Source: Escherichia coli
GTDB lineage: Bacteria; Pseudomonadota; Gammaproteobacteria; Enterobacterales; Enterobacteriaceae
Direction: 5' to 3' (one strand)
Assembly: GCF_003334385.1 (NCBI RefSeq)
Contig: NZ_QOWN01000009.1
DNA length: 64,000 bases
Made by a program: the position numbers and the translations under genes. The notes under the pieces are model-generated. The model saw nothing but the letters and a program-made list of their open reading frames with translations, did no database searches and was not told where the DNA came from. How positions within the stretch are numbered: position 1 is the stretch's first letter; each line of letters begins with the position of its first letter. Below are positions 17,720-22,034 of the stretch, piece by piece.

Positions 17720-19213
17720 ATGGCGAAAGAAAAAAAACGTGGCTTTTTTTCCTGGCTGGGCTTTGGTCAAAAAGAGCAGACCCCGGAAAAAGAGACAGAA
17801 GTTCAGAATGAACAACCGGTTGTAGAAGAAATCGTTCAGGCGCAAGAGCCTGTGAAGGCCTCTGAACAAGCCGTTGAAGAGCAGCCGCAAGCGCATACTG
17901 AAGCCGAGGCGGAAACTTTTGCTGCCGACGTTGTGGAAGTCACTGAACAGGTTGCTGAAAGTGAAAAAGCGCAGCCTGAAGCGGAAGTCGTTGCACAGCC
18001 GGAACCGGTCGTAGAAGAAACGCCGGAGCCAGTGGCTATCGAACGTGAAGAGCTGCCGTTGCCGGAAGACGTCAACGCCGAAGCGGTTTCGCCAGAAGAG
18101 TGGCAGGCTGAAGCGGAAACCGTAGAGATTGTCGAAGCGGCGGAAGAAGAAGCGGCTAAAGAAGAAATTACCGACGAAGAGCTGGAAACGGCGCTGGCTG
18201 CCGAAGCGGCAGAAGAGGCGGTGATGGTGGTTCCTCCGGCAGAAGAAGAGCAGCCGGTGGAAGAAATCGCTCAGGAGCAGGAAAAACCGACCAAAGAAGG
18301 TTTTTTCGCGCGCCTGAAACGCAGCCTGTTAAAAACCAAAGAAAATCTCGGTTCCGGATTTATCAGCCTGTTCCGCGGTAAAAAAATCGACGATGATCTG
18401 TTTGAGGAGCTGGAAGAGCAGCTTTTGATCGCCGATGTGGGTGTGGAAACCACACGTAAAATTATCACCAATCTGACGGAAGGCGCATCCCGCAAGCAGC
18501 TTCGTGACGCCGAGGCGCTCTATGGCCTGCTGAAAGAAGAGATGGGCGAGATTCTGGCGAAAGTCGATGAGCCGCTGAATGTTGAAGGCAAAGCGCCGTT
18601 TGTGATCCTGATGGTGGGCGTCAACGGTGTGGGTAAAACCACGACGATTGGTAAGCTGGCGCGTCAGTTTGAGCAGCAGGGTAAATCGGTGATGCTGGCG
18701 GCGGGTGATACTTTCCGTGCAGCTGCGGTTGAACAGCTTCAGGTCTGGGGTCAGCGCAACAATATTCCGGTGATTGCCCAGCATACCGGGGCGGATTCCG
18801 CCTCTGTTATCTTCGACGCCATTCAGGCAGCTAAAGCGCGTAATATCGACGTCCTGATTGCCGATACAGCCGGACGCCTGCAGAACAAATCGCACCTGAT
18901 GGAAGAGTTGAAGAAAATCGTCCGCGTGATGAAGAAACTCGACGTTGAAGCGCCGCATGAAGTTATGCTGACTATTGATGCCAGCACCGGGCAGAACGCG
19001 GTAAGCCAGGCCAAACTGTTCCATGAAGCCGTTGGCTTAACCGGCATCACGCTAACGAAACTGGACGGCACGGCGAAAGGCGGGGTAATTTTCTCGGTGG
19101 CTGACCAGTTTGGTATCCCTATCCGCTACATTGGTGTCGGCGAACGTATTGAGGATTTGCGTCCGTTTAAGGCGGACGACTTTATAGAGGCACTTTTTGC
19201 CCGAGAGGATTAA
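17720..19213 (+). CDS. ftsY: Signal recognition particle receptor FtsY
   Basis: 497 aa ORF: acidic low-complexity N-terminal domain, then SRP GTPase domain (GVNGVGKTTTIGKLA, DTAGR). Confidence 0.96.
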   Translation: MAKEKKRGFFSWLGFGQKEQTPEKETEVQNEQPVVEEIVQAQEPVKASEQAVEEQPQAHTEAEAETFAADVVEVTEQVAESEKAQPEAEVVAQPEPVVEETPEPVAIEREELPLPEDVNAEAVSPEEWQAEAETVEIVEAAEEEAAKEEITDEELETALAAEAAEEAVMVVPPAEEEQPVEEIAQEQEKPTKEGFFARLKRSLLKTKENLGSGFISLFRGKKIDDDLFEELEEQLLIADVGVETTRKIITNLTEGASRKQLRDAEALYGLLKEEMGEILAKVDEPLNVEGKAPFVILMVGVNGVGKTTTIGKLARQFEQQGKSVMLAAGDTFRAAAVEQLQVWGQRNNIPVIAQHTGADSASVIFDAIQAAKARNIDVLIADTAGRLQNKSHLMEELKKIVRVMKKLDVEAPHEVMLTIDASTGQNAVSQAKLFHEAVGLTGITLTKLDGTAKGGVIFSVADQFGIPIRYIGVGERIEDLRPFKADDFIEALFARED

Positions 19214-19215
19214 CA

Positions 19216-19884
19216 ATGATTCGCTTTGAACATGTCAGCAAGGCTTATCTCGGTGGGAGACAGGCGCTGCAGGGCGTTACGTTCCATATGCAGCCGGGTG
19301 AGATGGCGTTTCTGACCGGTCATTCCGGCGCAGGGAAAAGTACCCTCCTGAAGCTGATCTGTGGGATTGAGCGGCCCAGCGCCGGGAAAATCTGGTTTAG
19401 CGGCCATGACATCACGCGTCTGAAAAACCGTGAAGTTCCGTTTCTGCGCCGCCAGATTGGCATGATTTTCCAGGATCACCATCTACTGATGGACCGTACT
19501 GTCTACGATAACGTGGCGATCCCGCTGATTATCGCCGGTGCCAGCGGTGACGATATTCGTCGCCGGGTGTCGGCGGCGCTGGATAAAGTCGGGCTACTGG
19601 ACAAAGCGAAGAACTTCCCTATTCAGCTTTCGGGCGGTGAACAACAGCGTGTTGGCATTGCCCGCGCGGTGGTGAACAAGCCCGCGGTACTGCTGGCGGA
19701 CGAACCGACTGGTAACCTGGACGACGCGCTGTCGGAAGGCATTTTACGTCTGTTTGAAGAGTTTAACCGCGTTGGGGTAACCGTATTGATGGCAACGCAC
19801 GACATCAACCTGATCTCGCGGCGTTCCTATCGCATGCTCACCCTGAGCGATGGTCACTTGCATGGAGGCGTGGGCCATGAATAA
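19216..19884 (+). CDS. ftsE: Cell-division ABC transporter ATP-binding protein FtsE
   Basis: 222 aa ORF with Walker [10 protein letters not shown] and signature LSGGEQQRV; ftsYEX operon. Confidence 0.96.
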
Positions 19885-20935
19885 GCGCGATGCAATCAAT
19901 CATATTCGGCAGTTTGGCGGGCGTCTTGATCGCTTCCGTAAATCGGTCGGCGGCTCAGGCGACGGCGGTCGTAACGCACCAAAACGCGCGAAATCCTCGC
20001 CAAAACCGGTAAATCGCAAAACCAACGTTTTCAACGAACAGGTGCGCTATGCCTTCCACGGCGCATTGCAGGATCTGAAAAGCAAACCGTTCGCCACGTT
20101 TTTAACGGTGATGGTTATCGCCATTTCTCTGACGCTGCCCAGCGTCTGTTATATGGTGTACAAAAACGTTAACCAGGCGGCGACGCAGTATTATCCGTCA
20201 CCGCAAATCACTGTTTATCTGCAAAAAACGCTGGACGATGACGCTGCTGCGGGCGTGGTGGCACAGTTGCAGGCCGAGCAAGGCGTGGAGAAAGTGAACT
20301 ATCTTTCTCGTGAAGACGCACTGGGTGAGTTCCGTAACTGGTCTGGTTTTGGTGGTGCGCTGGATATGCTGGAAGAAAACCCGCTTCCGGCAGTGGCGGT
20401 GGTGATCCCGAAACTCGATTTCCAGGGGACGGAATCACTGAATACGCTGCGTGATCGTATCACGCAGATTAACGGCATTGACGAAGTGCGGATGGATGAC
20501 AGCTGGTTTGCCCGTCTGGCGGCGTTGACCGGGCTGGTCGGGCGCGTTTCGGCGATGATCGGCGTGTTGATGGTGGCGGCCGTGTTCCTCGTCATCGGTA
20601 ACAGTGTGCGTCTGAGTATCTTTGCTCGCCGTGACTCCATTAACGTACAGAAACTGATTGGTGCGACAGATGGATTCATCCTGCGCCCGTTCCTGTATGG
20701 TGGCGCACTGCTGGGATTTTCTGGCGCATTGTTGTCATTAATTTTGTCAGAAATTCTGGTGCTGCGATTGTCATCGGCGGTTGCGGAAGTGGCACAGGTT
20801 TTCGGAACGAAGTTTGATATCAATGGCTTATCATTCGATGAATGCCTGCTATTGCTGCTGGTATGCTCGATGATTGGCTGGGTGGCAGCGTGGCTTGCCA
20901 CGGTACAACATTTACGCCACTTTACGCCTGAATAA
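19877..20935 (+). CDS. ftsX: Cell-division ABC transporter permease-like protein FtsX
   Basis: Track ORF 19850..20935 trimmed to [15 protein letters not shown]... (352 aa); 8-nt overlap with ftsE. Confidence 0.93.
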
Positions 20936-21059
20936 TAAAAGCGTGTTATACTCTTTCCCTGCAATGGGTTCCGTAGCAGGGAAAGAGACCCCGTTGTCTC
21001 TTCCCGGTATTTCATCTCTATGTCACATTTTGTGCGTAATTTATTCACAAGCTTGCATT

Positions 21060-21086
21060 GAACTTGTGGATAAAATCACGGTCTGA
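21060..21086 (+). promoter_or_regulatory. rpoH sigma-E-type promoter (P3) with embedded DnaA box
   Basis: gaactt-N16-tctga matches the sigma-E -35/-10 consensus; tgtggataa at 21066..21074 is the reverse complement of a TTATCCACA DnaA box; about 100 bp upstream of rpoH. Confidence 0.7.
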
Positions 21087-21179
21087 TAAAACAGTGAATG
21101 ATAACCTCGTTGCTCTTAAGCTCTGGCACAGTTGTTGCTACCACTGAAGCGCCAGAAGATATCGATTGAGAGGATTTGA

Positions 21180-22034
21180 ATGACTGACAAAATGCAAAGT
21201 TTAGCTTTAGCCCCAGTTGGCAACCTGGATTCCTACATCCGGGCAGCTAACGCGTGGCCGATGTTGTCGGCTGACGAGGAGCGGGCGCTGGCTGAAAAGC
21301 TGCATTACCATGGCGATCTGGAAGCAGCTAAAACGCTGATCCTGTCTCACCTGCGGTTTGTTGTTCATATTGCTCGTAATTATGCGGGCTATGGCCTGCC
21401 ACAGGCGGATTTGATTCAGGAAGGTAACATCGGCCTGATGAAAGCAGTGCGCCGTTTCAACCCGGAAGTGGGTGTGCGCCTGGTCTCCTTCGCCGTTCAC
21501 TGGATCAAAGCAGAGATCCACGAATACGTTCTGCGTAACTGGCGTATCGTCAAAGTTGCGACCACCAAAGCGCAGCGCAAACTGTTCTTCAACCTGCGTA
21601 AAACCAAGCAGCGTCTGGGCTGGTTTAACCAGGATGAAGTCGAAATGGTGGCCCGTGAACTGGGCGTAACCAGCAAAGACGTACGTGAGATGGAATCACG
21701 TATGGCGGCACAGGACATGACCTTTGACCTGTCTTCCGACGACGATTCCGACAGCCAGCCGATGGCTCCGGTGCTCTATCTGCAGGATAAATCATCTAAC
21801 TTTGCCGACGGCATTGAAGATGATAACTGGGAAGAGCAGGCGGCAAACCGTCTGACCGACGCGATGCAGGGTCTGGACGAACGCAGCCAGGACATCATCC
21901 GTGCGCGCTGGCTGGACGAAGACAACAAGTCCACGTTGCAGGAACTGGCTGACCGTTACGGCGTTTCCGCTGAGCGTGTACGCCAGCTGGAAAAGAACGC
22001 GATGAAAAAATTGCGTGCTGCCATTGAAGCGTAA
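21180..22034 (+). CDS. rpoH: RNA polymerase heat-shock sigma factor sigma-32
   Basis: 284 aa [57 protein letters not shown]... with the sigma-70 family regions 2 and 4. Confidence 0.97.

Follow-up and report, generated by a model that had tools for sequence, protein, structure and literature searches.

In this work, we analyzed the regulatory region upstream of the heat-shock sigma factor gene rpoH within a 64,000-nucleotide stretch of Escherichia coli DNA, referred to hereafter as the window, whose coordinates are used throughout. Our results support that positions 21060-21086, GAACTTGTGGATAAAATCACGGTCTGA (GAACTT-GTGGATAAAATCACGG-TCTGA), constitute the core of the known sigma-E promoter rpoH P3; this identification follows from the fit of the segment to the published sigma-E promoter model and from its position upstream of rpoH, where P3 is documented. 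Taking the explanation as a whole, we consider it very likely that this core is transcribed by sigma-E and repressed by DnaA through promoter occlusion.

Results

The window carries the ftsYEX-rpoH locus of E. coli K-12. Between positions 20700 and 22300 it is 100% identical, with zero mismatches, to the reverse strand of MG1655 (NC_000913.3, 3599700-3601300), and MG1655 coordinates are obtained by subtracting the window coordinate from 3621963. The ORFs encoding FtsY (17720-19213), FtsE (19216-19884) and FtsX (19877-20935, plus strand; MG1655 3601028-3602086) far exceeded the corresponding NCBIfam equivalog cut-offs, and rpoH itself, which the promoter drives (coding sequence 21180-22034, plus strand; sigma-32, 284 aa), scored 430 bits against NCBIfam TIGR02392 (cut-off 323). 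The gene 5' of rpoH, ftsX, forms the upstream boundary of a 244-bp rpoH regulatory region. A 351-nt query from the ftsX-rpoH intergenic region found a match in each of the 5426 complete E. coli genomes, located in every case between ftsX and rpoH, and the downstream gene is annotated as rpoH in all of them. Promoter features were sought in the RefSeq record of MG1655, which annotates only the rpoH and ftsX coding sequences there, and an Rfam search returned no RNA family in the rpoH leader. The sole Rfam family above threshold in the window was the RyhB small RNA gene at 40199-40263 on the plus strand (RF00057, 83 bits), an ordinary occurrence that is consistent with the E. coli map.

The segment was compared with the sigma-E promoter model of Rhodius et al. 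(2006), built on 28 mapped E. coli sigma-E promoters. This model comprises a -35 motif GGAACTTTT, i.e. GGAACTT(TT); a spacer of 15-19 nt with 16 strongly preferred; a -10 motif (T/C)GGTCAAAA with an invariant C; and a discriminator of 5 or 6 nt followed by a purine start (Rhodius et al. 2006). The -35 element GAACTT lies at 21060-21065 on the plus strand and is assigned from the unique pattern match, the published consensus and conservation; with its flanks (TGAACTTgt, 21059-67) it has six of the seven bases of the consensus GGAACTT. The spacer GTGGATAAAATCACGG (21066-21081) is exactly 16 nt long, the strongly preferred length. The -10 element TCTGA (21082-21086), for which the pattern match, the published model and conservation agree, places the invariant C at 21083 and ends 94 nt 5' of the rpoH ATG. 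Its extended form CGGTCTGAT (21079-87) matches six of nine consensus positions including CGGTC, the final three bases of the spacer, CGG, joining the TC of the -10 element in the extended -10 motif (T/C)GGTC. From the sigma-E spacing rules, that is, the discriminator length and the purine preference, together with coordinate mapping, we infer a transcription start at about A21093 (MG1655 3600870), 87 nt 5' of the rpoH ATG. This predicted start lies 6 nt 3' of the -10 element, as the rules expect, but is an A in only 28 of the 49 enteric relatives described below.

The pattern GAACTT-N15-17-TCTGA has a single match on both strands of the 64-kb window, where 0.06 are expected (6 of 100 shuffles contained one match). 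A previous sequence-only reading had described a GAACTT-N16-TCTGA element fitting the sigma-E consensus, and both the sequence and its fit are borne out by this single match and by the agreement with the model. Databases reportedly place rpoHp3 at this very position. The sigma-E-dependent promoter P3 of rpoH was reportedly described by Erickson and Gross in 1989, Wang and Kaguni in 1989 and Rouviere et al. in 1995. In published work it is presented as "exclusively transcribed by sigma-E", as the promoter that led to the discovery of sigma-E, and it serves as a standard sigma-E reporter and as a control template for in vitro transcription. Sigma-E control of rpoH, which the same reading had called established, is indeed attributed to P3 in many papers, which describe it as a sigma-E-only promoter. 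The supplements of an E. coli/Klebsiella transcription start site paper contain no rpoH entry, and the plasmid table of the TraR paper does not state the end-points of rpoH P3.

A perfect DnaA box, TTATCCACA, is present at 21065-21073 on the minus strand (plus-strand reading TGTGGATAA, 9/9 matches). The reading mentioned above had located this box within the spacer and had called the overlap between promoter and box visible in the sequence. The overlap is there and the box is perfect, as the reverse complement of TTATCCACA, but it does not lie wholly in the spacer: it includes the final base of the -35 element, T21065, along with the first eight spacer bases, and straddles the -35/spacer junction. 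It is the sole perfect DnaA box in the window. Since 0.36 such boxes are expected per window and 29 of 100 shuffles contained at least one, a perfect box alone is not improbable by chance; it is the placement of the box within the promoter, combined with its conservation, that goes beyond chance. Boxes with one mismatch were also counted over the whole window (1-64000), and 24 were found against 11.5 expected, a number that none of 100 dinucleotide shuffles reached. Codon or oligonucleotide bias may account for this excess, as may the DnaA-box-rich chromosomal region that PMC12371093 discusses.

On the plus strand, positions 21041-21049 form a second DnaA box, TTATTCACA. It has one mismatch to the consensus, fits TTATNCACA, and is inverted relative to the perfect box, from which it is separated by a fixed gap of 15 bp. 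The one-base overlap with the -35 element and this conserved upstream box are the two refinements that we bring to the earlier reading.

Occupancy of this region by DnaA in vivo is published. By ChIP-seq, Stringer, Fitzgerald and Wade (2024, PMC11317965) identified 16 DnaA-bound regions in E. coli, rpoH among them, with a peak at MG1655 3600944, equivalent to window position 21019. The site sequence tabulated for rpoH in PMC11317965, tTTATCCACAagTTCAATGCAa, is the exact reverse complement of positions 21053-21074 of the window, which substantiates the statement of the sequence-only reading that DnaA binding at rpoH is established. As for the consequence of binding, the passages of PMC11317965 and of two other papers that cite Wang and Kaguni (J Biol Chem 1989) attribute to that work the repression of rpoH by DnaA. 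According to the double-box model of PMC11317965, DnaA recognizes tandem boxes 2-3 bp apart, and Table 1 of that paper lists a "double box" whose weak partner, TTCAATGCA (21054-21062, minus strand), overlaps the -35 hexamer. At rpoH, this partner, at a spacing of 2 bp, matches the consensus at only four of nine positions, and its distal half falls in a hypervariable linker (identity about 0.5).

Other signals were sought around the promoter. A sigma-70 consensus scan of 20880-21200 recovered none of the promoters P1, P4 and P5; its single match, at 21166-21193 (TTGAGA-16-CAAAAT, with a TG 5'), lies over the ribosome-binding site and start codon of rpoH and is probably due to chance, 0.5 matches being expected. 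P1, P4 and P5 are sigma-70 promoters of rpoH, P4 overlapping or neighbouring P3. Both P3 and P4 were reportedly found by Wang and Kaguni in 1989 to be repressed, in work that also described two DnaA boxes. The possibility that the upstream TTATTCACA is solely a CRP half-site (TCACA) was rejected, given that TAT at its positions 2-4 is conserved while position 5, the T of TCACA, is free; it may nevertheless overlap CRP/CytR sites. Adjoining this box upstream, the block TCACATTTTGTGCGTAAT (21023-21040) is strongly conserved (0.93 identity), and presumably forms part of the CRP/CytR binding region of rpoH. Just 3' of the ftsX stop codon, a strong RNA hairpin is found at 20951-20987 (CUCUUUCCCUGC...GCAGGGAAAGAG). 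The 63-nt stretch that contains it (20950-21012) has a folding energy of -26.7 kcal/mol (z = -4.5), and the stem CCCTGC/GCAGGG also occurs in Enterobacter and Citrobacter, where the loop is different. Because no U-run follows the stem, this hairpin is not a typical intrinsic terminator; it lies at about the start of the P1 transcript.

To follow the conservation of these elements in enteric bacteria, metagenome contigs were scanned with a promoter-independent pattern made of the rpoH ribosome-binding site and first codons, with E. coli excluded. Out of 85 stretches, 80 were taken as loci, and together with the window and the Enterobacter (L002) and Citrobacter (L017) loci they yielded 49 distinct upstream sequences, whose RpoH proteins show 83-97% identity to the query. 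Over these 49 sequences, identity to E. coli averaged 0.993 for the -35 element (21060-65), 0.986 for the perfect DnaA box (21065-73) and 0.984 for the -10 element (21082-86), compared with 0.837 for the remaining spacer (21074-81), 0.916 for the upstream DnaA box (21041-49), 0.504 for the linker between the boxes (21050-59) and 0.711 for the whole region (20990-21165). T21082 and C21083 of the -10 element are invariant in all 49 sequences, and the spacer has no indels in the 48 that could be aligned. The motifs, their uniqueness in the window and this conservation are direct observations, and the conservation pattern supports a function of both promoter and box.

The two most diverged alignable sequences (L109 and L139) keep GAACTTGTGGATAA while other spacer bases have changed, and this retention of the DnaA box next to a diverged spacer argues for selection on the box itself; a single sequence (L110) has lost the box and kept GAACTT. 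In close enterics the whole spacer is fairly well conserved, and part of the conservation of the box could come from overlapping signals such as the sigma-70 promoter P4 or CRP/CytR sites. The upstream box varies in the manner expected of a DnaA site: CAC at positions 6-8 never changes, 48 of the 49 sequences have the final A and 46-47 have TAT at positions 2-4, whereas position 5, the N of TTATNCACA, is free (T in 33, A in 12, C in 2 and G in 2). Across enterics, the two boxes stay at a constant distance, even though the sequence of the linker varies. As regards the weak partner TTCAATGCA, its CACA-equivalent end (21054-57) falls within this hypervariable linker (identity about 0.50) and, with its distal half so placed, the weak box is not conserved. 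The 10-bp linker itself (21050-21059) is hypervariable both in E. coli and in enterics (about 50% identity) and of constant length in the sequences examined, which suggests a constraint on spacing with an unconstrained sequence.

Among 5426 complete E. coli genomes, 4941 have a 40-mer identical to positions 21057-21096, and 479 more carry it with the sole change G21080T, located in the spacer and outside the DnaA box and both hexamers, so that at least 5420 of the 5426 genomes retain both hexamers and the box unaltered. The polymorphisms sampled in E. coli concentrate at 21050-21056, in the linker between the DnaA boxes. Two positions differ between E. coli and its relatives. At 21080, 2 nt 5' of the -10 element, K-12 and the 4941 genomes have the G that gives CGGTC and the extended -10 fit, whereas the 479 genomes and 45 of the 49 enteric sequences have T; at 21059, E. 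coli has T, while 35 of the 49 enteric sequences have the consensus G of GGAACTT. These differences may represent a trade-off between the two halves of the promoter.

At a larger evolutionary distance, 80 gamma- and beta-proteobacterial genomes, eight of them Enterobacterales, were sampled through their RpoH protein. A strict sigma-E-type motif (GAACyy-N15-17-TCnnA) was found 72-203 nt 5' of the matched rpoH start in 32 of the 80 loci, with 16 falling between -107 and -124, against 1, 0 and 0 of 80 in three control regions of equal size. Among the same 80 loci, only those of Enterobacter and Citrobacter have the embedded DnaA box; in this sample it is absent upstream of rpoH in Photorhabdus, Acerihabitans and Pantoea symbionts, as well as in Vibrio, Haemophilus, Pseudomonas, Xanthomonas and the beta-proteobacteria. 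The widespread occurrence of the sigma-E motif, with the embedded box present only in close enterics, points to an old sigma-E input to rpoH on which the DnaA box would be a later, enteric-specific overlay. The enteric conservation of these elements had reportedly been noted already by Ramirez-Santos et al. (NAR 2001).

Discussion

Taken together, these results are best explained by a promoter read by one stress sigma factor and covered in part by the replication initiator. For the sigma-E dependence and for the repression by DnaA we draw on the literature. The holoenzyme of the envelope-stress sigma factor sigma-E (RpoE) would transcribe the heat-shock sigma factor gene rpoH from P3, with region 4 of sigma-E reading GAACTT, region 2 reading TCTGA 16 bases downstream, and transcription starting from about A21093. 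A DnaA molecule on the perfect box (21065-73) would cover the -35 element at its 3' edge as well as the upstream half of the spacer, and a second one, probably bound at 21041-49, would occupy the place expected for an UP-element or alpha-CTD contact. Given that DnaA would thereby occupy DNA that the polymerase must contact, repression by occlusion is the geometry that we infer, in agreement with the published repression. In this way, the supply of sigma-32 would depend on how much DnaA is present or how active it is. Judging from the weak ChIP signal, DnaA would have a modest effect in fast growth.

Several observations could be accommodated by a different view of the box, namely that P3 is real and the DnaA box marginal, the conservation of TGTGGATAA deriving mainly from overlapping signals (the -35 element of P4, CRP/CytR sites) and the binding being weak and of little consequence. 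The rpoH region shows the lowest ChIP enrichment of the 16 sites, 4x the control (PMC11317965), the tandem partner that the double-box model requires is a 4/9 match and is not conserved, and the remaining spacer (21074-81) is also fairly conserved, at 0.837. Notwithstanding, the box is a perfect 9/9 match and is better conserved than that remaining spacer (0.986 vs 0.837), it is kept in L109 and L139 despite changes in the adjoining spacer bases, the upstream box displays the DnaA-type variation of TTATNCACA with a free position 5, and repression is what the papers citing the 1989 work ascribe to it. On balance, we find a marginal role of the box improbable. As for a chance overlap of a sigma-E-like motif and a DnaA-like 9-mer, neither of them functional here, chance alone would produce 0.36 perfect boxes per 64 kb and, at low frequency, short ECF promoter motifs (6 of 100 shuffles), but the position directly 5' of rpoH where P3 is documented, the near-perfect conservation in 5426 E. 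coli genomes and 49 enteric sequences beside a hypervariable linker, the ChIP-seq peak at the site (PMC11317965) and the sigma-E motif 5' of rpoH in 32 of 80 distant species vs at most 1 of 80 in controls leave it next to no probability, and the conservation and ChIP data, on which the box as a chance occurrence was rejected, effectively refute it.

Within the preferred explanation of a sigma-E promoter occluded by DnaA, the identity of the partner box deserves a comment. It is tempting to speculate that the overlay is specific to the Enterobacteriaceae and their closest relatives and that, at the same time, the functional partner of the perfect box is the inverted TTATNCACA box at its fixed distance of 15 bp and not the abutting weak box of the tandem model, although we hold this combined proposal only tentatively and regard it as rather doubtful. 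If it were true, rpoH would be an exception to the rule of tandem pairs spaced by 2-3 bp, with two DnaA molecules bracketing the -35 element. This is, in any case, a minor point.

The relevance of this promoter lies in its being the entry of envelope stress, through sigma-E, into the cytoplasmic heat-shock response governed by sigma-32, and rpoH is besides one of the few confirmed targets of DnaA, the replication initiator, in its role as a transcription factor. Both rpoH P3 and its DnaA box are already known, from a literature that goes back to 1989 and from the ChIP-seq reconfirmation of 2024. The modest addition of this work is a comparative footprint, in which the sigma-E promoter is widespread 5' of rpoH in gamma- and beta-proteobacteria, the box is found in close enterics only, and the conserved second box is the inverted one located upstream and not the weak neighbour.

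Comparison with known systems leads to the same identification. With respect to E. coli rpoH P3, locus and sequence are the same (100% identity to MG1655), the architecture is that of a sigma-E promoter and there is no difference, the segment being the known element itself. The DnaA site is likewise identical to the published one, tTTATCCACAagTTCAATGCAa in the ChIP-seq table of PMC11317965. That paper pairs the perfect box with the weak box at 2 bp, whereas in our comparison the weak box is not conserved and the inverted TTATNCACA 15 bp upstream is; this disagreement is an interpretive detail concerning the same element. The other promoters of the sigma-E regulon share with P3 a GGAACTT-like -35 element, a 16-nt spacer, a TC-containing -10 element and a discriminator of 5 or 6 nt, and the micA promoter has been published as 85% identical to rpoH P3 in its -35 and 100% in its -10 element; unlike them, rpoH P3 has a DnaA box over the -35/spacer junction. 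Among DnaA-repressed promoters, dnaA, mioC and uvrB are published negative targets that, like rpoH, have a consensus DnaA box in or next to the core promoter. The rpoH promoter differs from these three in being read by an ECF sigma factor and not by sigma-70, and from the other confirmed DnaA targets in having the lowest ChIP occupancy (PMC11317965).
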